From Zestosphaera sp. (lineage in GTDB: Archaea > Thermoproteota > Thermoprotei_A > Sulfolobales > NBVN01), in assembly GCA_038830105.1 (NCBI GenBank), contig JAWBLQ010000001.1, positions 1-33,124 on the forward strand: a stretch of DNA of 33,124 nt, in the 5' to 3' direction. The translations under genes were made by a program, and so were the position numbers. Under the pieces are notes generated by a model. It did no database searches and was not told the origin of the DNA. It saw only the letters and a list, made by a program, of their open reading frames with translations. Below are positions 2,985 to 30,038 of this stretch, piece after piece. How positions within the stretch are numbered: the first letter of the stretch is position 1; every line of letters begins with the position of its first letter.

Positions 2985-4292
2985 GTGTACATGTACGAGA
3001 GAACTCCCGATATAAGTGATGTGCTTGAGAGGTTTGACGAGGGGTCTGAGGTAGTTATTCGTGGTTGGATCCACCGGGTTTTCAAGGTTGGCGGTAAGGT
3101 CTTCGCCTGGGTCAGGGATCACTCAGGTTTCATTCAGGTGGTTTTCGATAAGAGTGGCTTGAGCACTGAGTGGGAATCGGTGGAGAGGTTAAGCAGGGAG
3201 TCCAGTGTTGAGGTCAGGGGTTCTGTGAGGGTTGATGAGCGTGCCCCGGGAGGTAAGGAGGTAATCGCTACTGAGTTAGTTGTATATGGGTACTCACCAC
3301 CGTTCCCTATTAAGGGCGGTGAGGATGTTGAGTACCTGCTCAACGTCAGGCATTTATGGCTTAGATCCAGGCAGATGATAGCCTTGCTTAAGATCAAACA
3401 TACTGTGATCCAGGCGTTGAAAGACTGGCTACTCAAGGACGGCTGGTGGGAGACCACACCCCCAATACTGACAGGCTCCGCTGTTGAGGGCGGGGCCACG
3501 TTATTCGAGGTCAAGTACTTTGATAAGATCGCCTACCTCTCTCAGTCAGCGCAACTATATCTAGAGGTGCTCATATTCCCGTTGAATAAAGTGTGGGCTC
3601 TAACCCCCTCCTTCAGAGCTGAGAAATCCAGGACTAGAAGACACTTAAGTGAGTACTGGCACCTGGAGGTTGAGGCAGCCTGGTACGACATGGATGACAT
3701 GATGGGGGTTGCTGAGGGGCTTGTGAGTCATGCGGTGGCTAAAACTATTGAAGAGAGGAAGGACGAGCTGAAGCTACTTAACAGAGACATATCAAAACTT
3801 GAGAGTGCTCTCCACCCTCCCTACCCGAAGGTGACCTATGACGAAGCGCTCGAGATCCTCGCAAGGAAGGGATTCAATATCGGATGGGGTGAGGACTACG
3901 GCGCCGATGAGGAGAAGGCGTTGACGGAGGAATTCGACAAGCCTTTCTTCGTGACCCATTTCCCCAAACGCATCAAGGCCTTCTACATGAAGGAAGACCC
4001 TAAGAGACCTGAAGTAGTCCTGGGTTTCGACTTACTGGCCCCTGAGGGGTACGGAGAGGTCATCGGGGGCTCGCAGAGAGAGGACGATTACGAGAAACTA
4101 TACAATAGAGTGTTGATGGAGGGGCTAGACTTCAAAGACTACGAGTGGTACTTAGACCTAAGGAAGTATGGGTCAGTGCCGCATTCTGGCTTCGGCTTGG
4201 GCATCGAGAGGCTGGTCATGTGGATAGCCGGTATAGAGCACATAAGAGACGCTGTGCCATTCCCTAGGTGGAGGGAAAGAATATATCCGTGA
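2985..4292 (+). CDS. asnS: Asparaginyl-tRNA synthetase (class IIb)
   Basis: Strong resemblance to archaeal AsnRS as I recall it: DERAPGGKEV, ILTGSAVEGGATLFEVKYFDKIAYLSQSAQLYLE, PSFRAEKSRTRRHLSEYWHLEVEAAW (motif 2), GGSQREDDYEKL, and VPHSGFGLGIERLV (motif 3). The start is either GTG 2985 or ATG 2991. Confidence 0.9.
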   Translation: MYMYERTPDISDVLERFDEGSEVVIRGWIHRVFKVGGKVFAWVRDHSGFIQVVFDKSGLSTEWESVERLSRESSVEVRGSVRVDERAPGGKEVIATELVVYGYSPPFPIKGGEDVEYLLNVRHLWLRSRQMIALLKIKHTVIQALKDWLLKDGWWETTPPILTGSAVEGGATLFEVKYFDKIAYLSQSAQLYLEVLIFPLNKVWALTPSFRAEKSRTRRHLSEYWHLEVEAAWYDMDDMMGVAEGLVSHAVAKTIEERKDELKLLNRDISKLESALHPPYPKVTYDEALEILARKGFNIGWGEDYGADEEKALTEEFDKPFFVTHFPKRIKAFYMKEDPKRPEVVLGFDLLAPEGYGEVIGGSQREDDYEKLYNRVLMEGLDFKDYEWYLDLRKYGSVPHSGFGLGIERLVMWIAGIEHIRDAVPFPRWRERIYP

Positions 4293-4300
4293 CAACTCAT

Positions 4301-4771
4301 TCACTCGTAAACCACGCTAATTATATGCTTCACCTTCCCAACCCCCTCAGTGAGTATTAGATGTATTAACTCCCTCGTGGTGTCCGTTAACTCGAGTTTT
4401 AACGCGTCACTGAACTTAAAGAAACCAATCCCCAGAGACTCCTCATTCACTACGGGCTCGCCCTCAGCGTTCCTCACAAGGTAATCAAGTATGACATAGT
4501 GATACTTGACGCTGTAGTCTCTCTTAAGCCTCAGGTACTCAGTGATTGCAAGCAACTCAGCCTCACGGCCTTTAAGAGAGGTCTCCTCCTCCAGCTCCCT
4601 GAATAAAGCTGTGAGGATGGGTTCCCCAGCCTCGATGTGCCCGCCTGGTATTGACCATAGATTAGGTGAGGGTGGGTATTTCCTCTTAACAAGTAGTATC
4701 TCATCATTACCTCTGATGACGACGGCCCCGACAGCCACTCTAGGCCACTCACCCATTAAGAACACCCTCAC
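4301..4771 (-). CDS. Nudix hydrolase
   Basis: Nudix box GGHIEAGEPILTALFRELEEETSL (G-x5-E-x7-REUxEExGU). The listed start at 4771 is GTG; an ATG at 4756 (MGEWPRVAVGAVV) is an alternative. Confidence 0.85.
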   Translation of the reverse strand: MRVFLMGEWPRVAVGAVVIRGNDEILLVKRKYPPSPNLWSIPGGHIEAGEPILTALFRELEEETSLKGREAELLAITEYLRLKRDYSVKYHYVILDYLVRNAEGEPVVNEESLGIGFFKFSDALKLELTDTTRELIHLILTEGVGKVKHIISVVYE

Positions 4772-4795
4772 TAAGAGAACCTGCTTCAGGAATTA

Positions 4796-6163
4796 ATGCT
4801 TTTCTATTGCTTAGTGGCATTCATTATAGGATTAAGCATGGAATCAGAGACTCAGCTGATGTGTGTTAGGTGTGGGTTCAGGTTAGATGAGGTGAGGTAC
4901 GTTGACAGGTGTCCTCAATGCGGCGGTCTCTTAGTCCCCACGTTCACGGGCTCCTTAAGGAGGACGGGAGATTCAGGTGTTTGGGTGTGGGGTAGAGCGC
5001 TTTACACCGCCTTCATGAGGCCTAAGGTGACGTTAGGGGAGGGCCACACCCCTTTAACAAAGTCAACTAGAATCGGGAGGAGTCTCAAGGCTAACCTTTA
5101 CTTCAAGGATGAGTCTAAAAACCCTACCGGGTCCTTCATAGATAGGGGTGCCGCTACCCTCGCCACAGCTCTCAGGTACTTCAGAGTTAGATCAATTTCC
5201 GTCGCATCGACAGGTGATTTAGGTATATCGGTCTCAACGTATGTAAGGAGGGTCGGTCTCACCACCAGGATATATGTTCCCTCAAGCGTGACGTTAAGTA
5301 AGGCGTATAAGACCTTACTGACAGGCGGTAAGGTTAGGTTCGTTGACAGTTATGAAGAGGCGTTGCTTAGGGCTTCAAGAGCCGTAAAGCTTTATGGGGC
5401 AATGATACCTCCCTCACACCCGTACCTGATGGACGGGTATAGAACCATTGCCTTCGAGATTCTTCACGAGTTAAGTGGGAAGAAACCCCTAAACCTAGTA
5501 GTCCCTATAGGTGATGGGGTCTTAACCATGAGTCTCTACCAGGCATTTAAAGACTTAAACGTCAGGCCTAAGTTCCTCGGGGTCAAGGCCTGTAGGGAGT
5601 CACCGCTGTTAAGGGAGATATACGTGATGAAACCCATGCTTCACGAATACCTTGAAGAAATCGCGTCGTTAGGGATCCTGGAGATAGTTGATGTGTGCGA
5701 TGACGAAGCCCTTGAAGCGAGTGAATTAACCATTAAGAACGAGGGGTTCTTAGTGGGGCCTGTCGGCGCGTCTTGTATAGCGGCGCTTCTGAAGGCAGGC
5801 CCTGAAGCTGTGAGGGGTAAGGTGACCGTCGCGTTGATGACCGGTGACCCGTTGCAGGACCCCTACATAATGAAGGCGTTGCTAGAGAGGACTGCAGGCA
5901 CGAGAGAGGAACTCCTGACGCTAGGCTTCACTAAAACCAAGATCTTAGAGATGCTCGCGTACGGCGATCCTACCCACCCATACATGATATGGAAGGGTTT
6001 AAGAAGTAGGTATGGACTCTCCGTCAGTAGGAGAACCGTGTACAAGCATGTAGAGGAACTCATAGACGCAGGCCTTCTCAAGGTGGTCAGCTACAAGAAA
6101 GTAGGTGGCAGATTGAGGAAGGTTATCTCCATAACTGAGTCTGGCTTGAGGTACCTTACCTGA
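4796..6163 (+). CDS. Threonine-synthase-like (fold-type II PLP) domain lacking the catalytic lysine, with an N-terminal Zn ribbon and a C-terminal PadR-like winged helix; probable ligand-sensing regulator
   Basis: CVRCGF...CPQCGG zinc ribbon as in archaeal ThrC. The family signature reads NPTGSFIDRG, with Ile (ATA, 5138-5140) where the PLP lysine should be. The C-terminal ~80 aa (KTKILEMLAYGDPTHPYMIWKGL...RRTVYKHVEELIDAGLL...GGRLRKVISITESGLRYL) is PadR-like. The first 14 codons are hydrophobic and atypical, so the true start is probably ATG 4838. Confidence 0.75.
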   Translation: MLFYCLVAFIIGLSMESETQLMCVRCGFRLDEVRYVDRCPQCGGLLVPTFTGSLRRTGDSGVWVWGRALYTAFMRPKVTLGEGHTPLTKSTRIGRSLKANLYFKDESKNPTGSFIDRGAATLATALRYFRVRSISVASTGDLGISVSTYVRRVGLTTRIYVPSSVTLSKAYKTLLTGGKVRFVDSYEEALLRASRAVKLYGAMIPPSHPYLMDGYRTIAFEILHELSGKKPLNLVVPIGDGVLTMSLYQAFKDLNVRPKFLGVKACRESPLLREIYVMKPMLHEYLEEIASLGILEIVDVCDDEALEASELTIKNEGFLVGPVGASCIAALLKAGPEAVRGKVTVALMTGDPLQDPYIMKALLERTAGTREELLTLGFTKTKILEMLAYGDPTHPYMIWKGLRSRYGLSVSRRTVYKHVEELIDAGLLKVVSYKKVGGRLRKVISITESGLRYLT

Positions 6164-6288
6164 CCTCTCTGTTCTTGAAGAGGTGAGGATTTAGCTTCGC
6201 GCCTGGTTTAAAACTTTCATCTATAACCTCAGTTCATAGTGAACCTGATAGTGACTCCATGACCTAAAAACTTCGCTGAGTCGTTAGT

Positions 6289-7044
6289 TTGGGTGAGGTA
6301 ATGGTCAGCGTCGTTAGAGTCTCTCTTTACACTGCTTTAGTGTTGATTGCAACGATAGTTCTTCAAATATACACGCCGGCAACGAGAGGGTATTTCAACT
6401 TAGGGGAGGTCGCTATATACACCGTGGCAGCGTTATCCACGCCCTTAGCGGCTGGTGTTGCTTCAGGCGTGGGTTCAGCTTTAGCGGACTTAGTGACTGG
6501 TTACGGGATCTTCGCGCCAGGTACGTTGCTGATTAAGTTCTTCGAGGGTTTCGCTGTTTCGCTGTTAATCAGTAGCTTCAGGAGGAGGGTTGGTAATCTG
6601 CTTAGGCTCCGCTTAATCTCTGTCCTAGTCGGCGTCCTCTTAGGGGCACTCATAGCGGGTCTCGGGTTAACCCTCTTCACAGGCGAGGTTGAACTCATAT
6701 CAGTACCGCTGAACATAGCGGGTCTTAACATAACTATTGTGGCTCTCTCATTCACGCTTGGCACCTGGTTCTGGGTTGTGTTAGGCGTTATCATTGCCGG
6801 CTCGATAGCGTACGTCGTGATTAGGGCTGGAGGCGAGGCTTTAAGCTACACGGTTCCGATACTGATCGGCGGGTCGCTGATGGTTCTTGGTTACTTCCTG
6901 TATGAGTACTTCATATCGAATCCCCTTCAAGGAATACCTCCTGAGGAGGCGTTCTTTGAGGTCCCGGTTAATTACGGTCAGGCTCTAGCAGGCCTGACGC
7001 TTTCATCCCCAGTTATTTCATTTGTTAACAGGGCTAGAAGGTAG
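6289..7044 (+). CDS. Polytopic membrane protein, probable substrate-capture (S) component of the adjacent ECF transporter
   Basis: Very hydrophobic, about 7 predicted TM segments. S-component-like segment GSALADLVTGYGIFAPGTLLIKFFEG. It lies directly upstream of the ECF ATPase gene, 6 nt away. TTG 6289 or ATG 6301 start. Substrate unknown. Confidence 0.5.
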   Translation: MGEVMVSVVRVSLYTALVLIATIVLQIYTPATRGYFNLGEVAIYTVAALSTPLAAGVASGVGSALADLVTGYGIFAPGTLLIKFFEGFAVSLLISSFRRRVGNLLRLRLISVLVGVLLGALIAGLGLTLFTGEVELISVPLNIAGLNITIVALSFTLGTWFWVVLGVIIAGSIAYVVIRAGGEALSYTVPILIGGSLMVLGYFLYEYFISNPLQGIPPEEAFFEVPVNYGQALAGLTLSSPVISFVNRARR

Positions 7045-7050
7045 GCTGAG

Positions 7051-8307
7051 TTGATCGTTAGGGGTCTTAACGTATGGCTGGATAACCAACACATACTGAG
7101 GAACATCAGCCTTGAAATTAACGATGGTGAGGCTGTCCTCCTAGTAGGTCCCTCAGGCTCCGGCAAGTCAACGCTTCTCAAGACCTTAAGCAATGTAATA
7201 CCTTCAGTTATTAAGGGAGTTGTTAAGGGTCATTCCGATCCCCCACTGCACGTTTTAGGGCGTGTAGCCATGTACGTTCATCAGGAGCCCTGGTTCTTCG
7301 TCTCCACACCTTACGTCTGGTCCGAGGTAGTCAGCTACACGAAGATCAAGTCTCTAAGCGAGGTTAGAGAGGTTCTCGACGAATTCGGTTTAGGAGAACA
7401 TATAACCAGAACTACCTACACCCTAAGCTCCGGCGAGATTCAGAGGCTTGCGTTCCTCATAGCAGTGAATTCAGGTAAGGACCTACTCCTAGTTGATGAA
7501 CTCTCATCTTATCTGGACAGACGTAATTCCGAGACCTTAGTCAGGCTCGCTGAGAAAGTGGTGAGGGAATACGGCAAGACCCTGCTCATAGTCGATCATG
7601 AAGTGGATTTATGGAGTAAGGTAGTTAGCAGGACGCTCTACATGAGTGAGGGAACTCTAACCGAAGGTGTTGGAAACCCCTTCAGCGATACGCTCAAGCG
7701 CTTGAGCGAGAGCCTCAGCTCCCCTGATGAGGGAGGTGACGAATGCCTGAGCATTCACATCGACAGTTTCAAGTTCCCTGACGCTGAGGAGCCTTTGCTA
7801 AGTGATGTAGACTTCGACGTCTGCAGGGGTGAGGTGATCGTTGTGAAGGGTTCCTCAGGATCCGGGAAAACAACCCTGCTTAAAATCATCGCAGGTGAGT
7901 ACGTGAAGGGCGGGAAGGCGATCAAGTTGAGAGGGCCTCCCGGAAGGCTTGTATTCGTACCAGACAACCCGTTGCTCTACTTGAGCTCGCCTACGCCTGC
8001 GGAGGAGGTCGGTAGGGAGGGGTTAAGGTATTTGGAGTACTTAGGCCTCTTAAGCAAGGCTGAGACCCCTATCATGAAGCTCAGTAGTGGTGAGAGGAGG
8101 AGGTTAGCCATAGCCTCGGCGCTGGCAAGAGGATACGAATACGTGCTTATGGACGAGCCAACCGCCGGACTTGACCCCCTAAACAAGGGTAGCGTTCTTG
8201 AGGCCATCATTAAGGCATCCTCGTTAGGGACGGGCTTCGTGATCGCATCTCACGACCCCTTCGTTGAGATGATCGCTAATAAGGTGGTGGACATTGAGCG
8301 TTGTTAA
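7051..8307 (+). CDS. Fused tandem ABC ATPase (EcfA-EcfA'-like) of an ECF transporter
   Basis: Two ABC cassettes in 418 aa. Walker A: GPSGSGKST and GSSGSGKTT. Signature: LSSGEIQR and LSSGERRR. Walker B: LLLVDE and YVLMDE. H-loop: VDHE and ASHD. TTG start. Confidence 0.85.
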   Translation: MIVRGLNVWLDNQHILRNISLEINDGEAVLLVGPSGSGKSTLLKTLSNVIPSVIKGVVKGHSDPPLHVLGRVAMYVHQEPWFFVSTPYVWSEVVSYTKIKSLSEVREVLDEFGLGEHITRTTYTLSSGEIQRLAFLIAVNSGKDLLLVDELSSYLDRRNSETLVRLAEKVVREYGKTLLIVDHEVDLWSKVVSRTLYMSEGTLTEGVGNPFSDTLKRLSESLSSPDEGGDECLSIHIDSFKFPDAEEPLLSDVDFDVCRGEVIVVKGSSGSGKTTLLKIIAGEYVKGGKAIKLRGPPGRLVFVPDNPLLYLSSPTPAEEVGREGLRYLEYLGLLSKAETPIMKLSSGERRRLAIASALARGYEYVLMDEPTAGLDPLNKGSVLEAIIKASSLGTGFVIASHDPFVEMIANKVVDIERC

Positions 8308-8986
8308 GAGGCTGACGGATCTAATCAGGTTTTTCACCTCTCTCTTGTTTAAATCTATCTTCATCCATGGGGACATCGCCGGGAGGCATGTCCCCACAGC
8401 GCTGAACTTAGCCTTACTTACTACTCAGCTACTTATAGCTAGGGGCGGTGTTCACAATATATTAGTGGTGCTTGCTTCAATAACCACTGTTTACGTGATT
8501 CGTGATTCACATAAGGTGGTTAAATATGCTGCCGTCCTGGCTTTAGTCCCGACCGTGTGGTACTTCTTAATGTCTCTGCCGTTCACCCTAAGTATACCGA
8601 GTTCAGGACTCATAGCCTTAAGAGTCTTCACAGTGAGTCTCTCGTTCCTGTGCTTCTTCTACTTCCTAAACCCTGTTGAGATTTCAACTTTGATGAAATG
8701 GTTGGGGTTAAGGAAGGCATCCCTTTACCCAGTCTTCACGTGGAGGGTTGTTCCTCATATAATGCGGGACGCCGAGACTGCCCTACTCATAGGCGAGATG
8801 AAAAGGGTTGAGTCCTGGAGGAGTCTCGCCATCTCCGTAGTCACTACCGAGGAGTACGTATCGCTGTATGAGGAGGGAACATACACTAAACCCTGCTACG
8901 ACCCGTACTTCAGATACGACATCAGGCATTCATTAATCACTGCGGTTATCCTCACGACGTTACTCACATTCCACGCAGTTGCTTAG
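8294..8986 (+). CDS. ECF transporter transmembrane (T) component, CbiQ/EcfT-like
   Basis: Hydrophobic 230-aa protein. It overlaps the ATPase gene by 14 nt, which suggests translational coupling. EcfT-like segment FLNPVEISTLMKWLGL. The call rests on position in the S-A-A'-T order. Confidence 0.6.
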   Translation: MSVVKRLTDLIRFFTSLLFKSIFIHGDIAGRHVPTALNLALLTTQLLIARGGVHNILVVLASITTVYVIRDSHKVVKYAAVLALVPTVWYFLMSLPFTLSIPSSGLIALRVFTVSLSFLCFFYFLNPVEISTLMKWLGLRKASLYPVFTWRVVPHIMRDAETALLIGEMKRVESWRSLAISVVTTEEYVSLYEEGTYTKPCYDPYFRYDIRHSLITAVILTTLLTFHAVA

Positions 8987-9046
8987 ACTTCGACATCGTG
9001 CACTGATTTAAATACTTTTAACTAACTTCTGTTTGGTGGTTTAACG

Positions 9047-9436
9047 ATGTCCTTCACCCCGGGCATGAGGTATGTGAGGAGTTACGTCACGACTTCTCAA
9101 CATTCAGCGAAGCACCTGGGCTCCGGCTCTCTGGAGGTGCTCTCCACTCCGTCAATGATTCTCTTCATGGAGGACACTTGCCGTGCCTTCACTGAAGGAT
9201 ACCTCTCCGAGAACCAGGCAACCGTGGGGACTCACGTGGACGTGTATCACGTGAGGCCGGCGCTCATAGGTAGTGAGGTAGAGATACGCTCAACGCTGGT
9301 GCAGGTTGACGGGAGGAAGCTGGTCTTCTGGGTGGAGGCATGGAGTGCAGGTGAATTAATAGGATACGGCATGCATGAGAGGGCAGTGGTTGATAAAGAG
9401 AAATTCATGTCAAGACTCAAGAGCTCAAGCCAGTGA
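9047..9436 (+). CDS. Hotdog-fold thioesterase (FlK/COG5496-like)
   Basis: 129 aa. HLGSGSLEVLSTPSMILFMEDTC and VGTHVDVYHVRPALIGSEVEI resemble the small predicted-thioesterase family. TATA-like atttaaata lies about 30 nt upstream. Confidence 0.6.
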   Translation: MSFTPGMRYVRSYVTTSQHSAKHLGSGSLEVLSTPSMILFMEDTCRAFTEGYLSENQATVGTHVDVYHVRPALIGSEVEIRSTLVQVDGRKLVFWVEAWSAGELIGYGMHERAVVDKEKFMSRLKSSSQ

Positions 9437-9513
9437 GACACACGTGTAGCGGACCACTTCTTTTACCTCAACGCTAAGCACCATCTTGGCTATGCTTAAT
9501 AAGTTGCTTAAGC

Positions 9514-10554
9514 TTATAACATGTTAGCTCTGAGCACCCTAAGCACGTTCTCGTGAGCTATCTTAACTAGGTCTCTGTCTGATAAACCCTTCTCCTTAAG
9601 CTTCCTCAGAAGCGCCGGTATCTTATCTACGGATTCAAGCCCCTCTGGCGTGGGCAGTCCTAGCAACCCTAGGAAGTCCGTCCCTACCGCTATCACATCT
9701 GGTCCGAACCTTTCGTATATGTAGATGAAGTGCTGGGCGAGGTCTTCTAATGACGGTCTGGGCTTCTTCGCTATCAAGGGTCCTATGACTGACACGCCCA
9801 TCACTCCGCCGCTCCTGTGAAGGGCCTCAAGAACCTCGTCATCAACGTTCCTCGGAGTGTCCACGATCCCTCTGACGTTTGCGTGACTGATTACCACGGG
9901 CCTCTTGCTCACCTCTATTGCTTCTAGAGCTGTTTTCTTACTCACGTGAGCTAGATCAACTAATATGCCAAGCTTGTTGGCAGTCCTGACTAACTCCTCA
10001 CCCTCTGATGTGAGTCCTACATCCTTCTTAGCGTTGCATCCAGTACCGTACTTATTCATGTAGTTCCAGGTCAATCCAATAGCCCTCAGCCCCAGCTTCT
10101 TCAGGAGGACTAGGTCGTAGGGCTCGTCTAAAACCTCCGCACCCTCTATGTGGAGGATGAAGCAAAGACCGTCACCTCTCAAACACCTCTCAACGTCGTC
10201 AATGCCATCCACCAACCTAACCCCGTACGCCTCCGAGATCTTGTGGTAGATGGATACATGCTCCAATAGCAAGGACTGAGGAACCCTATACCCTACGGCT
10301 GGCAACCACCTGCCGTAAAGCTTCTCAAGAGCCTTAGACTCCTCAGGCCTGAAGGTCTCGATACCTAGGAACATGGAGGCAAAGACGCACCTCACATTAC
10401 CTCTTAAGTACTTAGGGATATCAGCGTCACGACCGGGAATGTCTTCGCCGAAGTCCCCTAGAGGAGCTCCACCACCGTGAATGAGGAAGTAAGCGGATAC
10501 ATCCTCGTGAAGATCTACTACGGGAGCGTTACTGCCATTATAACTCAAGGTCAC
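9514..10554 (-). CDS. Membrane (renal-type) dipeptidase, peptidase family M19
   Basis: VVDLHEDV near the N-terminus, then GLTWNYMNKYG, DLAHVS, ISHANVRG, RNVDDEVLEAL and GTDF, in the order expected for M19. Confidence 0.8.
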   Translation of the reverse strand: MTLSYNGSNAPVVDLHEDVSAYFLIHGGGAPLGDFGEDIPGRDADIPKYLRGNVRCVFASMFLGIETFRPEESKALEKLYGRWLPAVGYRVPQSLLLEHVSIYHKISEAYGVRLVDGIDDVERCLRGDGLCFILHIEGAEVLDEPYDLVLLKKLGLRAIGLTWNYMNKYGTGCNAKKDVGLTSEGEELVRTANKLGILVDLAHVSKKTALEAIEVSKRPVVISHANVRGIVDTPRNVDDEVLEALHRSGGVMGVSVIGPLIAKKPRPSLEDLAQHFIYIYERFGPDVIAVGTDFLGLLGLPTPEGLESVDKIPALLRKLKEKGLSDRDLVKIAHENVLRVLRANML

Positions 10555-13414: not shown

Positions 13415-14896
13415 TCACGACGTGCTCGCCTTCTTTTTAGTTATTGCGATCCACTGGCTAGGCAGTAATAGCGAGAGGACAGGTATCAACTCAAGCCTCC
13501 CTAACCACATGAGTAAGGCCAACAGGACCCTGCATACGTCGTTTAACTTGAATAAGTCCAGGTAACATGGCCCTACGTTACCTTGAGCAGACGCAACTGC
13601 GGAGAGCGCTTGAAACGGCTCGTAACCGAATGCCGTAAGCACTAACGTGCTTGCCAGTATAATCACGAAGTACGCTGAAATGAACATGAACAGCTTTGGG
13701 ATCTCATCACGATCTAAGACCTGGGACCCTAATTTCACGGGTTTAACGACGCCTGTAGGCAGGAAGAATAATTTGAATTGATTGACCATCACTTTAAGCG
13801 CCGCGACGATCCTGCCGACCTTAATAGCACCGCCAGTTGAACACAGATTACCGCCAATGAACATTAAGATTAGAAGCATGAATTTAGAGAAAGGAGGCCA
13901 TAAGTCGATATTAGTTGTGGTATACCCTGTCGTGGTCATTATGGATATCGACTGAAATATTGTGAGCCTGAAGGCATTCACCACATCGATATGTAGTCTG
14001 TAGATAAGGTCCAACGCCATAAGCGACGTGGAAATAGCGATTATGAGAACCGTCGCCTTGACCTCGTAGTACTTGAAGAAACGCTTAGGGCCACTGGTGT
14101 ATAATATGTAGTGAGCTAGGAAGTTGATAGCGCCTGTGAGCGCGAAGAAAGCAAGGGCCATCTCCACAGCAGGGTTGCGGAACGCAGCCACGCTCTCACT
14201 CCTCGTTGAGAAGCCCCCAGTAGCTAACGCCGTGAACGAGTGCGTTACGGCGTCGAACCAGTCGAGACCTAAGAACATTAACGTCAATACACACGCGGCA
14301 GTGTAACCTAGGTATATAACCCATATAGACTTAACGGTAGCCCATGTAGAGGGCTTTATCCTCGTTTCTCTGGCTTCGGCGACGTATAACCTCCATAAAC
14401 TAATGCTCCCAGTTGGCACTATCATGAATATTAAGAACAACATGATTATCCCAGTGCCACCTAACCACTGAGTTAACGCCCTCCAAAAAAGCACCGATCT
14501 AGGCACTACCTCAATAACGCTGATTAAGGTCATCCCGGTCGTGGTGAATCCAGACATGCTCTCAAAAAACGCGTCAACCCAATTCATCCTAATAGTTAAC
14601 ACGTAAGGTATGGCGCCGAGAAAAGCAACTATAACCCAAGTAATGCCCGAAATGAACGGCGCCTCCACTAACGCTATAGATGAGGGCGCTGGTAGGAACA
14701 GGCTCAGTATAAAGGATACCAAGAACGAGATTAAACTAACAAGCACGAAGACCCTGGCTTCAGCAATCTCCCCGTAAATGAAACCCACTAGAGCCGGTAG
14801 TAACATCGTTAAACTGGCGATACTCACTATCCTAAGCACCAAGCTCATCAGAGCTGTTACGCCTCTTACACCGACGGAACCATGATCATGCGTCAC
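13415..14896 (-). CDS. trkH: TrkH/KtrB-family potassium transporter
   Basis: Highly hydrophobic 493 aa with repeated selectivity-filter-like P-loops: SGFTTTGMT, ATGGFS, TTTGYTT and QGNVGP. No trkA partner is visible in the window. Confidence 0.85.
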   Translation of the reverse strand: MTHDHGSVGVRGVTALMSLVLRIVSIASLTMLLPALVGFIYGEIAEARVFVLVSLISFLVSFILSLFLPAPSSIALVEAPFISGITWVIVAFLGAIPYVLTIRMNWVDAFFESMSGFTTTGMTLISVIEVVPRSVLFWRALTQWLGGTGIIMLFLIFMIVPTGSISLWRLYVAEARETRIKPSTWATVKSIWVIYLGYTAACVLTLMFLGLDWFDAVTHSFTALATGGFSTRSESVAAFRNPAVEMALAFFALTGAINFLAHYILYTSGPKRFFKYYEVKATVLIIAISTSLMALDLIYRLHIDVVNAFRLTIFQSISIMTTTGYTTTNIDLWPPFSKFMLLILMFIGGNLCSTGGAIKVGRIVAALKVMVNQFKLFFLPTGVVKPVKLGSQVLDRDEIPKLFMFISAYFVIILASTLVLTAFGYEPFQALSAVASAQGNVGPCYLDLFKLNDVCRVLLALLMWLGRLELIPVLSLLLPSQWIAITKKKASTS

Positions 14897-15861: not shown

Positions 15862-16794
15862 CTAATCAGTCGTTCCCGAGATCCGTCTCCTCGCCAGGAT
15901 GAGGTGGTAAAGGATGAGCATGGATGCGATGAGCACCGCTGTCACAGAGATTATCAAGACCCACACGCTGTATGTATCTGTTAACTGCTCCTTAAACACT
16001 ATGTCGTTGAGAATCTCTGTGTTCGCTCTATGCAACTCTAGACACACCGTATCCCTTACGACGTAGGTGGCGTCGCTTACCGCCTGTTGCGTTAGCCTGG
16101 TTACGTTTCCTTTAATAAGGATCCCGTACTTACAGTCGTAGTACGCCGCACCACTACCTCCCTCAGTGATTATGGAGACCTCAAATCCGTTGACGTAGGC
16201 ACTAGCTATTGAGACGCTAAAGCAACTCTGAGTAGTCTTCTCATGAATTAAAGGCACCACTGTTAGAGAGTTGATTAAATCAACGGCTAGACCCCTGTCC
16301 ACGGTTTGGTTGTAGTCAGTTAGTACGTGCTTTATAAGGAAGTCCGTATAGTTTCTGGCAGTCCAGTACATGAAGCCGCCTATGCCGACCCAGTCACTGC
16401 TAGATGCTGAGACTTCAATCATGGATCCGGGGAACCTGTAACCCTCCACGATCACGTGAGACTTGTCAAGAGCCCTAGCCCTCACCATGTACTCCTGCCC
16501 TACGCTGTAGGTCACGAGCCTCCCGCTCAGGTTCGATATGTAGACAGTCCTGACGACCTCGTAGGTGAGCACCAGGTCCCCCTTCGCCACCTCTAGCAGT
16601 CTCTCAAACGCCTGAGACTGCGCAAACGAGGTCGGGAGCAAGCTAGGCGACGCTACGCTGAGGATGAAGAGCAAGGCAAGAATTATTAAAGCAAGCTTAG
16701 TTAACGTAATCACCCACACCACTAAACATAAGGAAAAACAAGCATTAAAAACACAGTCTACGTAATAATCGCTGACCGTAGACGCGCTGAGCAA
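15862..16794 (-). CDS. Hypothetical surface or membrane-anchored protein
   Basis: N-terminal hydrophobic signal or anchor (LALIILALLFILSVASPSLL), a central soluble domain with several N-x-S/T sequons, and a C-terminal TM helix plus basic tail (VWVLIISVTAVLIASMLILYHLILARRR). No recognisable family. It lies 4 nt upstream of nth and 16 nt downstream of the NTase gene. Confidence 0.5.
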   Translation of the reverse strand: MLSASTVSDYYVDCVFNACFSLCLVVWVITLTKLALIILALLFILSVASPSLLPTSFAQSQAFERLLEVAKGDLVLTYEVVRTVYISNLSGRLVTYSVGQEYMVRARALDKSHVIVEGYRFPGSMIEVSASSSDWVGIGGFMYWTARNYTDFLIKHVLTDYNQTVDRGLAVDLINSLTVVPLIHEKTTQSCFSVSIASAYVNGFEVSIITEGGSGAAYYDCKYGILIKGNVTRLTQQAVSDATYVVRDTVCLELHRANTEILNDIVFKEQLTDTYSVWVLIISVTAVLIASMLILYHLILARRRISGTTD

Positions 16795-16810: not shown

Positions 16811-17809
16811 TCACGCTGGCACTACATACCCTCTATATTCCCTCCCGCCTACCAGAAGGTAAGGCTCTCCATCAGGGATTGATACCTCGAGCATCCCGGA
16901 GACCCTTAGTCTACCCCCTCTATACAGTACGTAGTCATACTCGGCTTCATAGCTGATCAGCCCTCTCAACACAGGTCCTTCAACGGTCTTGACCACTATA
17001 ACGTGGGATGGGTAGAAGAGAGCCTCACAGACACCGCCTTCCACCTCGACCACAGCATCCACAGGCTTAAGAGGTCTTAGAACCAGCCCCCCGTACCTCG
17101 TTTGATCCTTACTCACGAATGTAAATGTTACCGGTACTCCTTTATAACTAAGGAATTTGTAAGGCGGGATTAACTCTCTGTAGAGCTCGGGGCTTAACCC
17201 TAGAATCCTCGAGTTCCTCACTATCTTATCCGCCACCCAGCCCGCGGGCATTTTAACCATGTTGAGGTGCGGTATCTCAACGAACTTCACCACGTCCCTG
17301 CAACCATATATCACTAAATCCACGTCTGAGTGCATGCCGTGAATCCCAGCCAGCACTGAGCCCGTGACGCCTATGTTCCCAGGCTCCACACCCACGGTCT
17401 CTGAGACCAGCTCCGAGACCTCTACCGCCACCAGCTCCACGTTATCGCTAACCCTCCTCCTAAGCATATCCATCCTCAACTCAGGCTTAAGCCACACCTT
17501 AATCATTGATTCAGGTACCGCCGGTATGAAGACATTGAGTGTTGGGTCATAGATCTGAGTTCCAAACCCCTGCATGACCTTAACCAGTTCTTCGACGCTG
17601 TACTCCCTGAGAACCCTCTCGTAGTACGTGAACCTCCCCCTCCAGAGAGTAGGCCTGCTTGTGGGAACGTACTTAATGTATGCAGTGATAAGCCCGGGGG
17701 GATGTCTATTACCCATAACAACGTGGATATTGCCCTCCGTATCAACTATTAAGTCGTGATCTAGAAAACCCCTCTCCTCAGACGGTTTGCTACTAATCAT
17801 CCAGCTCAT
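16811..17809 (-). CDS. Predicted Pol-beta-superfamily nucleotidyltransferase (archaeal COG1665-like)
   Basis: NTase signature G-S...D-x-D in GVTGSVLAGIHGMHSDVDLVIYG. It is flanked by a ~140-aa N-terminal domain and a beta-rich C-terminal domain. The family assignment is from memory only. Confidence 0.5.
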   Translation of the reverse strand: MSWMISSKPSEERGFLDHDLIVDTEGNIHVVMGNRHPPGLITAYIKYVPTSRPTLWRGRFTYYERVLREYSVEELVKVMQGFGTQIYDPTLNVFIPAVPESMIKVWLKPELRMDMLRRRVSDNVELVAVEVSELVSETVGVEPGNIGVTGSVLAGIHGMHSDVDLVIYGCRDVVKFVEIPHLNMVKMPAGWVADKIVRNSRILGLSPELYRELIPPYKFLSYKGVPVTFTFVSKDQTRYGGLVLRPLKPVDAVVEVEGGVCEALFYPSHVIVVKTVEGPVLRGLISYEAEYDYVLYRGGRLRVSGMLEVSIPDGEPYLLVGGREYRGYVVPA

Positions 17810-19152: not shown

Positions 19153-20361
19153 CTACGCACTACCAGTAGGCGCTCTGTATCTACTCCTCAAGACTTCCAT
19201 AGCCTTCTCGTAGTTGTTGTGTAGTTTCTTCGTAGCTTCTAAAGCTATATTCGCGAGCAACATGGCATCATCGTAAGTCGCGTACGGTATTCCGTTGCTC
19301 TGAATGTAAGCGTTCCCAACAGCTATAGAAGCAACAGCACTAGTTCCCGGAACCACGCCAGAGAAGCCTACCACCTCACTTAAGTCCTCGCTCATGAAGA
19401 CTACCCCACCGAAGTCCTCGCATATGAGTTTTGCTAAGTTAGCTATGGTAGTGGATTTCTCCAGAGCTCCCTTGGAGCTCTCGAGCTTCAACGCCTCCCC
19501 CTTCAAGGACTCCACTAGCGTGTGCTTAACGCTCTCTAAACCCCTGCTGAACCTCGGGTATGCGTTGTCGACTTCGATATAGTTCGCGTTCCTTTCCTCT
19601 AATGCGTTTCTAATAGCCTCAGCGACAACGACGTTATCGTACTCCTTATTATACCTCAGGAGGAGAGAGGTCCATATAACCCTCCCAGCTAACGCCGGGA
19701 TGAAGGCCTTGCTCTCAAGGACCACTGTCGGCGTTGCTAACACTCCTAAGGCCTTCATCACCTCGCCCTTAACGCCTAACGGGACGTTACCCTCTAAATC
19801 CTCAACAGGCCCTACCCCGGATCTAGAGCCGTTCACAGTAAGTAGGACGGAGAACGTGCCCCCCTCTAGATTCACCTCCACACCCCCGACTATGTCGTCC
19901 GTTACGCCATCCTTCTTCAGGATGAAGCCCGGGATCCGTCTCGCTAGAGTGTCAAGCGCGGCCTCAGCCAGGGAGTACTCAACTGCTACAGGAGCTTCGA
20001 GACAGCCGTTGCCGTACATCCTCCCGAAAACTCTCAGCGTCGCTAGGTGGGGTAGGGACGCGTCGGCCCCCTCTAGACTCCTCAACATCTCGGTCTCGAA
20101 AGTCGTTAAGCCTCTTCTCGGTGAAGCACACCCGAACCCGCCATCCTCAGTCTCTACGCAGACAGTCCTTAGGGAATGTATCGTGACCTTCCTCACGCTA
20201 ACATTGAAATCGAAGAACTTACGGAGTAGGGCTACGGCTGACGCGTACCCGAGAGAGTCATCTTGAATTAAGCCACTGTGACTATGAACATGTCCAACCC
20301 CGATGTGCCCGGCTACGCAGACGGTCCTACTTGATCCAGTCATGTGGATCACGTGGTTCAA
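19153..20361 (-). CDS. Hypothetical protein (402 aa) with an N-terminal His cluster, co-transcribed with the GltP-type transporter
   Basis: Long uninterrupted ORF. The TTG start overlaps the upstream stop by 4 nt; an alternative ATG 20343 is 14 nt downstream of that stop. H-x4-H-x-H-x-H cluster (AGHIGVGHVHSHSG). I recognise no family. Confidence 0.6.
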   Translation of the reverse strand: MNHVIHMTGSSRTVCVAGHIGVGHVHSHSGLIQDDSLGYASAVALLRKFFDFNVSVRKVTIHSLRTVCVETEDGGFGCASPRRGLTTFETEMLRSLEGADASLPHLATLRVFGRMYGNGCLEAPVAVEYSLAEAALDTLARRIPGFILKKDGVTDDIVGGVEVNLEGGTFSVLLTVNGSRSGVGPVEDLEGNVPLGVKGEVMKALGVLATPTVVLESKAFIPALAGRVIWTSLLLRYNKEYDNVVVAEAIRNALEERNANYIEVDNAYPRFSRGLESVKHTLVESLKGEALKLESSKGALEKSTTIANLAKLICEDFGGVVFMSEDLSEVVGFSGVVPGTSAVASIAVGNAYIQSNGIPYATYDDAMLLANIALEATKKLHNNYEKAMEVLRSRYRAPTGSA

Positions 20362-29231: not shown

Positions 29232-30038
29232 TTGAAGGTAATACTTTGTGAGCTGAGGAGGATGTCTAAGAAACCGAAGAAGGAGGTAGGGAAGGTAGTC
29301 AAGAAGAAGTCAAGAAGAGTCACATCTAGGCTGAAGAGGGTTGACGTCATCATCTTAGTGAGCGTCGTAGCCCTCATCATAGCCGGGATGTATCTAGCGT
29401 TTTTCGGGGTTCCCTCAATCCCGGCAACAAGTGCTCAGACTGTTGTGACCCCCCTGGAGGTCCTTAAGAAGGTCGTGACTTCTGTCTTCGTAAGTAATTA
29501 CACTAACACCTCTCTAATCGTTATGTATAGCGTCAGGGGGAATTACGCGCTTAACACGTCTCTCTCCATAGCTGATTCCATGTTCGTTACAGCGGCTTAC
29601 AATGGTGAGAGAGGCTACTGGTTCGCGTACTACGACGCAACGCCCTACATGAGGCCAGTCCTAAGAAAGTTAGGGATTGAGTCGTTCCAGGAAGACAACG
29701 CCACCCTACCGCCTAAGGTCAGTAAGCCTGAGGAACTCCTCATCAACGTTTTGAGGTTAGAGCGGAGGAATGCCTCCTTAATTAAGACCTACCTAGGTGA
29801 TGAGGATCTCCCCGTAACCCTATCAACACTCAATCTAAGCTCGGCCTCGCTCAATAAAATCAATACGGTCACTTCAACGAGGGCTACAGAGGTCTTCACT
29901 TACACAGTGACGGAGGGCAACTCGAGCTTGACCATCACCCTCTGGGTCGATAAGGAGACTCGAGTACCTCTGAAGGCCAGGCTAGTCTCAAGAGACGGCG
30001 AGCTTATATTCACGCTGACCAGCGTAGGGCTTATTTAA
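29232..30038 (+). CDS. Hypothetical N-terminally anchored membrane or extracellular protein
   Basis: Lys/Arg-rich N-terminus, a single TM helix (VIILVSVVALIIAGMYLAFFGV), then a soluble domain with many N-x-S/T sequons. The likely start is ATG 29262, preceded by gaggagg. No family recognised. Confidence 0.5.
   Translation: MKVILCELRRMSKKPKKEVGKVVKKKSRRVTSRLKRVDVIILVSVVALIIAGMYLAFFGVPSIPATSAQTVVTPLEVLKKVVTSVFVSNYTNTSLIVMYSVRGNYALNTSLSIADSMFVTAAYNGERGYWFAYYDATPYMRPVLRKLGIESFQEDNATLPPKVSKPEELLINVLRLERRNASLIKTYLGDEDLPVTLSTLNLSSASLNKINTVTSTRATEVFTYTVTEGNSSLTITLWVDKETRVPLKARLVSRDGELIFTLTSVGLI

Follow-up and report, generated by a model that had tools for sequence, protein, structure and literature searches.

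A threonine synthase-like protein fused to a PadR-type winged helix is a candidate regulator of vitamin B6-type uptake in archaea

Regulators of the bacterial MocR/PdxR type join a winged helix to the fold of a pyridoxal 5'-phosphate (PLP) enzyme, which they have put to new use in sensing an effector and in dimerisation. In Bacillus subtilis, the fold-type II PLP protein CysK acts as the metabolite-sensing partner of the winged-helix repressor CymR, and archaea possess ThiR, an enzyme-derived vitamin regulator in which a ThiN domain is joined to a DNA-binding domain. RbkR, a riboflavin kinase carrying a winged helix-turn-helix (wHTH), is reported as a further archaeal one-component vitamin regulator derived from an enzyme (PMC5397151). 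The regulons of bacterial PdxR, which is of MocR type and senses PLP, include pdxU, and MocR regulators are stated to be "not present in Archaea" (PMC5320631). We found no description of an archaeal vitamin B6 regulator in the searchable literature. Here we analyse a 33,124-nucleotide stretch (33 kb, hereafter the window) of contig JAWBLQ010000001.1, from a Zestosphaera metagenome-assembled genome (MAG) of the Desulfurococcales, in which one gene encodes a threonine synthase (ThrC)-fold protein that has lost its catalytic lysine and carries a PadR-type wHTH at its C-terminus. The gene adjoins that of the S-component of an energy-coupling factor (ECF) transporter, and we favour, by a modest degree, the view that its product is a one-component ligand-sensing regulator of local B6-type vitamer uptake and a functional analogue of PdxR.

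The protein differs from MocR/PdxR in pairing a fold-type II ThrC domain with PadR, where those regulators pair a fold-type I domain with GntR, and in having its DNA-binding domain at the C-terminus, where MocR has an N-terminal one of GntR type. MocR also keeps the PLP lysine, which the archaeal fused family has mostly lost; showing neither of the two features that define MocR regulators, the family stands to them as a functional analogue, not a homologue. With RbkR and ThiR it would share the principle that a vitamin-pathway enzyme fold senses a vitamin derivative and governs genes for biosynthesis or transport, although the folds are unrelated and RbkR is still an active kinase. CysK and CymR, in turn, are two separate proteins, and CysK is still active and has its lysine. 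Enzyme-derived vitamin regulators are thus already known in archaea; what appears undescribed is the pairing of these folds, the loss of the lysine throughout the family and the link to B6.

The fused protein and its altered active site

The gene and the elements of its product lie in the window as follows.

4838-6163, + strand: coding sequence of the ThrC-fold/PadR fusion; the longest open reading frame (ORF) runs from 4796, the start at 4838 is backed by orthologues
4862-4921, + strand: N-terminal Cys4 zinc ribbon (C23, C26, C39, C42; CxxC-12-CxxC), conserved family-wide
5027-5845, + strand: fold-type II PLP-enzyme (ThrC-like) domain, degenerate, from Pfam PALP, Foldseek and the replacement of ThrC invariants
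5138-5140, + strand: ATA codon, Ile115 at the Schiff-base lysine position, from phmmer alignments
5216-5218, + strand: GAT codon, Asp141, replacing the Asn of STGN that contacts O3' of PLP (STGDLG aligned on STGN)
5513-5515, + strand: GAT codon, Asp240, in the former phosphate-binding glycine loop (PIGDGVL replaces PVGNAGN/GSGG)
5927-6160, + strand: PadR-type wHTH (H-H-H-beta-beta-H), from Pfam, profile search and a structure model

The longest ORF, 4796-6163, gives 455 amino acids, and the Met at 4838, where orthologues start, is likelier to be the true start than 4796. The public record of the protein, MEM2020603.1, is labelled "pyridoxal-phosphate dependent enzyme". An earlier reading of the sequence without database searches (the sequence-only reading) had assigned it the layout of an archaeal ThrC, a Cys4 ribbon followed by a fold-type II PLP domain, and this was recovered: the cysteines are conserved, Pfam PALP matches residues 78-350 at 1.7e-47, and an AF2 model with a predicted local distance difference test (pLDDT) value of 80 aligns to the ThrC structures 6nmx, 2zsj and 1uim with template modelling (TM) scores of 0.70-0.74 in Foldseek. 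By PALP and Foldseek alike, the window protein has the ThrC-topology fold-type II domain expected of a threonine synthase.

The residues that serve catalysis are another matter. In phmmer alignments with four solved ThrCs, NPTGSFIDRG falls onto NPTGSFKDRG and places Ile115 on the Schiff-base lysine, as had been read from the ATA codon, and STGDLG, which had been matched to the PLP-contact motif with some doubt, indeed aligns on STGN. Since the Ile codon varies synonymously among 20 orthologues (ATA in 14, ATC in three, ATT in three), Ile must be a selected state, and a sequencing error, which had been named as a possible refutation, is rejected. About ten more positions that are invariant among enzymatic ThrCs are altered in the window clade. 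Like the archaeal zinc-ribbon ThrCs modelled by PRK05638 and PRK08197, the protein combines a Cys4 ribbon with a fold-type II domain, and PRK05638 even models a C-terminal extension; unlike them, it has no catalytic lysine, no STGN Asn and no glycine-rich phosphate loop, has gained a wHTH, and scores far below the curated cutoffs (82.6 vs. 167.1 for TIGR00260, 166 vs. 421 for PRK05638 and 107 vs. 303 for PRK08197).

The roughly 80 extra C-terminal residues had been proposed to form a PadR-type wHTH, and profile and model agree with this. A family profile of the domain matches PadR structures almost exclusively (1.7e-4), and when the C-terminal 86 residues were modelled alone (pLDDT 90.5) the top Foldseek matches were PadR proteins, the closest folds including the DNA-bound B. 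subtilis PadR (5x11; TMq 0.80, root-mean-square deviation ~1.9 Å). The basic residues of the recognition helix and wing are kept, with R44, Y47, H49, R70, R72 and K73 invariant. Of the two Pfam domains that had been expected, PALP was recovered outright, whilst PadR (PF03551) reached 24.1 bits over residues 383-454 (domain ~378-455), just under the Pfam cutoff of 27; several orthologues have a precomputed PF03551 match, and the family profile and the structure support the domain. Structure prediction thus returned both the ThrC-fold core and the PadR-type wing, and every sequence-level statement that the sequence-only reading made about the fused protein holds. The domain has the same winged-helix fold and sequence signature as the PadR family, yet sits at the C-terminus of a ~360-residue sensor, whereas in PadR proteins an N-terminal wHTH is followed by a short dimerisation helix.

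Lysine loss across the fused family

A scan of species-representative genomes gave 576 relatives, of which 80 were kept for analysis, from Desulfurococcales, Bathyarchaeia, Nitrososphaerales, Thermogladius, Ignisphaera, Njordarchaeota and Promethearchaeota. All 80 have the C-terminal winged helix, so that relatives retain the fusion as well as, in the 20 orthologues mentioned above, the Ile. In the lysine column, Ile is found in the window clade, Nitrososphaerales and some others, Arg in most Bathyarchaeia (NPTNSFRDR) and in Thermogladius, Leu, Thr or Tyr occasionally, and Lys in eight members.

An exhaustive profile search of 1.84 billion representatives, free of search-pattern bias, returned 584 proteins at E ≤ 1e-30. 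We classified the best 150 of these, 108 of which were fused and 42 unfused. The lysine is absent from 103 of the 108 fused representatives (I 37, L 22, R 15, V 10, T 6, M 5 and a few others) and kept in five, whilst 39 of the 42 unfused homologues keep it and three do not (Fisher p ~7e-27). Loss of the lysine therefore accompanies gain of the wHTH across the family. In a rough neighbour-joining tree without bootstrap the fused proteins form essentially one clade with the canonical ThrCs outside, and this clade has two branches, one with a hydrophobic residue at the lysine site, including the window protein, and one with Arg or Lys. The Lys-retaining fused members L067, L073 and L074 still adjoin an S-component gene, have a variant operator (TATTATAGnTATAACTATAATA plus TATAGTTTAAACTAGAATA), and may work in MocR-like fashion with PLP held covalently.

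At 11-12 Bathyarchaeia loci a canonical, Lys-bearing ThrC (NPTGSFKDRG, ~410-435 amino acids, no wHTH) is encoded head-to-head with an Arg-type fused gene; divergent canonical thrC genes were recorded at L021, L027, L032, L034, L036, L041, L044, L048, L053, L058 and L061. As the canonical enzyme adjoins it, the fused paralogue is not the threonine synthase of the cell. The arrangement may be left over from an origin by duplication, or may reflect a functional tie to threonine metabolism. The latter would suit a sensor that keeps ThrC-like recognition and responds to O-phosphohomoserine, threonine, phosphoserine or a similar ligand of amino-acid type, perhaps in an adduct with PLP that is bound non-covalently, with the importer moving a related compound. 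The Arg-type relatives do keep almost all ThrC substrate and cofactor residues but the lysine, and in MocR regulators such as GabR the effector is an adduct of PLP with an amino compound. We nevertheless think such a ligand improbable: the candidate operator stands at the S gene only and not in the spacer between thrC and regulator, the S-component pocket matches that of PdxU2, the window clade has lost many substrate-site residues, and ECF transporters import mostly vitamins.

The NCBIfam model PRK05638 (NF004170), an "equivalog" named threonine synthase, aligns over the entire fused architecture, and the Arg-bearing Thermogladius member (L049) exceeds its cutoff (444 vs. 421). Public records likewise give the name "threonine synthase" to fused relatives, among them AFK51764.1 of T. 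calderae 1633 and WGM89052.1 of Ca. Bathyarchaeum tardum (L039). Taken at face value, these names and the intact fold would make the protein a working PLP enzyme that uses another residue or a non-covalent cofactor. This we regard as extremely improbable, given that the Schiff-base lysine, the Asn, the phosphate loop and some ten more ThrC invariants have gone, that scores lie far under every ThrC cutoff, that the loss of the lysine is family-wide and tied to the wHTH, and that a canonical ThrC co-occurs in related genomes. The name is very probably wrong for the Lys-less fused proteins, and the equivalog name is probably wrong for the family that PRK05638 models. The sequence-only reading knew of no described ThrC-fold/PadR fusion. 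We too found no description in the full-text literature searched, outside which lie many papers in subscription journals, so that this absence is not proof; the fusion is, however, not a rarity, as PRK05638 already models a large family of it.

The S-component gene and candidate operators

Downstream of the fused gene the window holds the following elements.

6159-6188, + strand: stem-loop overlapping the regulator stop codon (10-bp arms, -14 kcal/mol), possible terminator before the S gene
6236-6254, + strand: candidate operator, tandem direct repeat ATAGTGA-N5-ATAGTGA with period 12 (ATAGTGAnnnnnATAGTGA, also given as ATAGTGAacctgATAGTGA)
6263-6271, + strand: A/T-rich TATA-like box CCTAAAAAC, conserved; throughout the clade it follows the repeat at 8-9 nt
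6301-7044, + strand: ECF S-component of the PdxU/PdxU2 (PF07155) family; ATG 6301 follows a GGTGAGG Shine-Dalgarno-like motif, TTG 6289 is a possible start

The S gene lies 125 nt downstream of the fused gene on the same strand. An S-component homologue directly adjoins the fused gene at 67 of 82 loci by tblastn and at three more by clustering (70 in all), across all phyla sampled and irrespective of the residue (Ile, Arg or Lys) at the lysine site; contig ends account for several of the exceptions. The ATPase and T genes of Bathyarchaeia and Nitrososphaerales lie elsewhere, whilst the S gene stays adjacent to the fused gene. What is deeply conserved is thus the pair of regulator and S gene and not a complete S-A-A'-T operon.

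The S-component belongs to a recognised S family (PF07155; 76.2 bits vs. a cutoff of 26.7), and the archaeal S-component profile matches one solved structure, chain S of 4HZU (E 1.3e-13). This is the Lactobacillus brevis protein first named "HmpT" for hydroxymethylpyrimidine (HMP) and now called PdxU2, whose co-purified ligand was identified by mass spectrometry as pyridoxamine (PMC4860826). PdxU and PdxU2 both fall in PF07155/COG4720 and, with P5PA, are the only characterised prokaryotic B6 transporters (PMC9997740). Of the six conserved pocket residues of PdxU2/HmpT, four (E41, Y120, N140 and Q143) have identical, invariant counterparts in the archaeal proteins (E36, Y198, N224 and Q227), and the other two are replaced, also invariantly, H84 by K79 and Q87 by E82. 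As the pocket is invariant across the Ile-type and Arg-type clades, one substrate class is suggested for the whole family. The S-component family is a probable archaeal family of B6 importers. The archaeal proteins are longer (~250 vs. 166 amino acids in PdxU2/HmpT), with a hydrophobic insertion of ~80 residues between the aligned regions that probably adds transmembrane helices.

The same transporter evidence bears on a second substrate. The architecture and target could be as we describe, with the effector and substrate being the thiamine pyrimidine HMP, its phosphate (HMP-P) or another small heteroaromatic vitamin precursor, and this we judge unlikely, if not negligibly so. HMP-P and pyridoxamine 5'-phosphate (PMP) or PLP are nearly alike in shape, and some Nudix enzymes hydrolyse HMP pyrophosphate and thiamine pyrophosphate; a Nudix gene is conserved in the cassette, and a neighbour of the S gene in Bathyarchaeia, of the AIRS type, is distantly ThiL-like (82 bits). 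Yet the Nudix protein matches no specific subfamily, the AIRS-type protein scores higher with HypE than with ThiL and below all cutoffs, and the sensor derives from a fold that binds PLP. The closest solved S-component, 4HZU chain S, owes its first name to HMP, and its co-purified ligand was pyridoxamine (PMC4860826).

Of the two intergenic regions that the sequence-only reading had put forward for binding assays, 6164-6288 contains an operator-like site, and in 4757-4837 no equivalent was found. The tandem repeat at 6236-6254 is the sole perfect match within the window, is kept at the same position and spacing in 10 related loci, and reads ATATTGAAGnnnATATTGAAG in a clade at ~42% identity, whilst a relaxed form of the pattern has eight matches in 706 kb of unrelated control loci. 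The CCTAAAAAC box that follows it is a putative TATA box. A second site in the window with two mismatches (13945-13963) was discarded, as it lies inside a TrkH gene and within chance expectation. In the spacer between the Nudix gene and the regulator (4757-4837) no copy of the repeat was found, seven close loci when aligned showing only A/T-rich promoter-like conservation, and autoregulation was rejected for want of a tandem-repeat copy upstream of the regulator. A CACTAAG/CTTAGTG inverted pair is confined to the window and L003. The stem-loop at the regulator stop codon lies within an insertion confined to the window and L003, which is 92% identical to it.

In Bathyarchaeia the spacer holds a TATA box followed immediately by a palindrome, TAGTATAGTT-nn-AACTATACTA (22 bp; TAGTATAGTTATAACTATACTA), 0-45 nt before the S start. 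Across the 80 genome loci, even when four mismatches are allowed, the palindrome is confined to positions ahead of S genes. In metagenome contigs a scan with the exact pattern turned up 120 sites, 99 of them directly before an S gene; the remainder are mostly at contig ends beside the regulator, with six in unrelated contexts (such as a pilin-like protein, an integrase and an ATPase). These six were taken as chance. A wider regulon was rejected on the result for the 80 genome loci. Variants in one arm of the palindrome lack a compensating change in the other, which argues for a protein-binding DNA site over an RNA hairpin, and an RNA element was also rejected on the lack of any Rfam match at E ≤ 1 in 4200-9600. 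An ATAGT core is common to the window-clade repeat and the Bathyarchaeial palindrome, and the operator sequence shifts between clades along with the regulator lineage. At L044, L048, L061, L063, L068, L072 and L082 the right half of the operator (AGTTnnAACTATACTA) is repeated in direct orientation ~17-21 nt downstream of the palindrome, which suggests that more than one dimer may be bound.

A TATA-proximal site over the expected start is the classical position of an archaeal repressor, and the position of the Bathyarchaeial operator is typical of one. The window-clade site, just upstream of the TATA-like box, could serve repression by occlusion of the B recognition element (BRE) and TATA box, or could serve activation. 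Might some other protein read these elements, the fused protein acting as a cytoplasmic partner of the transporter that captures or chaperones the vitamer and uses its wHTH for protein contacts? The operator is linked to the regulator solely by adjacency, a direct repeat is unusual for PadR, and no autoregulatory site was found, all of which such a partner would accommodate. We hold it very unlikely even so, as the C-terminal domain is close to DNA-bound PadR with invariant basic residues in recognition helix and wing, and the operator varies with the regulator lineage around a common ATAGT core; one-component regulators beside their target genes are, moreover, the norm. We are fairly confident, instead, that the fused protein is a transcription factor for the S gene.

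Beyond the S gene, the cassette comprises four further genes.

4301-4771, - strand: Nudix hydrolase, divergent, kept in the cassette within Desulfurococcales
7051-8307, + strand: fused A-A' ABC ATPase, two ABC_tran domains in one polypeptide (Pfam)
8294-8986, + strand: putative T component, hydrophobic, 230 amino acids, conserved in synteny
9047-9436, + strand: FlK-type hotdog thioesterase at the cassette end, kept within Desulfurococcales

The full cassette, from Nudix to thioesterase, is retained in relatives down to ~40% identity. The sequence-only reading had placed a divergent Nudix gene upstream of the fused gene and an ECF transporter with S, A, A' and T components downstream. The Nudix gene and the S-component are where it put them. 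The A and A' components were found as well, in one protein of 418 amino acids that has the two ATPase domains of an ECF transporter and matches the ECF_ATPase_1/2 models below cutoff; its gene overlaps the next by 14 nt. The T component, in contrast, was confirmed by no profile: the window protein has no Pfam match, CbiQ appears at E = 0.078 in one of seven orthologues, and there is no PDB profile match. Position, size and hydrophobicity fit a T component, and the alternatives are a very divergent EcfT and another kind of membrane subunit. For the Nudix and thioesterase proteins we found no informative subfamily, and neither has an obvious link to B6. No B6 or thiamine genes were found in the rest of the window, where four ORFs of 268-402 amino acids (15862-16794, 16811-17809, 19153-20361 and 29232-30038) have no Pfam match at E ≤ 1e-5.

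In Bathyarchaeia and Nitrososphaerales, a protein of ~338 amino acids from the AIRS/PurM superfamily is encoded right after the S gene at ~29 genome loci (for example L023, L024, L030, L035 and L042) and at most of the metagenome loci L083-L202. It reaches 127 bits with HypE and 82 bits with ThiL, and might act in the salvage of whatever compound is imported.

A candidate B6 sensor and its implications

Comparative evidence, namely the correlation of lysine loss with the wHTH, the linkage to the S gene, the operator and the S-component family, supports the proposal of the sequence-only reading that a pseudoenzyme sensor joined to a wHTH controls the downstream ECF gene and may sense B6. From these data we infer DNA binding by the fused protein, the identity of its effector and the sign of regulation. 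The ThrC-fold domain, its catalysis lost with the Schiff-base lysine, would act as a small-molecule sensor and, by analogy with ThrC enzymes, probably also as the dimerisation module. It would bind a B6 vitamer reversibly (pyridoxamine, pyridoxal or their phosphates), the C-terminal PadR wHTH would bind the operator at the adjacent S-gene promoter, and the circuit would tune B6 uptake to the intracellular pool. Because the S-component is of PdxU/PdxU2 type, a B6 vitamer is the most likely effector, a call that we put at about even or marginally better.

Several points weigh against this interpretation. The PadR match of the window protein falls short of its Pfam cutoff, the window site is a direct repeat, unlike the inverted repeats that PadR proteins usually bind, and adjacency is what connects operator and regulator. 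Pfam names PF07155 for riboflavin transporters, so that membership of the family leaves the substrate unfixed, and the substrate of HmpT/PdxU2, HMP or B6, has long been debated. In the window clade, Asp141 at the O3' contact and Asp240 in the phosphate loop argue against phosphorylated PLP bound in the ancestral mode, and with these two changes this clade may not share its effector with the Arg-type relatives. The latter retain nearly all cofactor contacts apart from the lysine and so plausibly bind PLP or PMP non-covalently. For the Ile/Asp type a non-phosphorylated, cationic vitamer such as pyridoxamine would suit better than PLP, which is speculation only.

More broadly, the phylum-spanning fused family could be the missing archaeal B6 regulator, a non-homologous counterpart of PdxR that switches a PdxU-type ECF importer via a dedicated operator; we advance this tentatively, at a little under an even chance. 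If it is true, no earlier transcription-factor family would have the threonine synthase/tryptophan synthase-beta fold as its basis, and a PLP-enzyme fold would have been turned into a transcriptional sensor a second time, independently and here with the lysine lost. The "threonine synthase" label would then be wrong for hundreds of archaeal proteins, and the AIRS/PurM-type gene after the importer in Bathyarchaeia would be a candidate non-orthologous B6 salvage enzyme. The probable systematic misannotation distorts the picture of threonine biosynthesis that metabolic reconstruction gives for MAGs of Bathyarchaeia, Thermoproteota and Asgard archaea, and the family offers a testable candidate regulator whose operator and target gene are defined and for which there is a cultivable host, Thermogladius calderae 1633.

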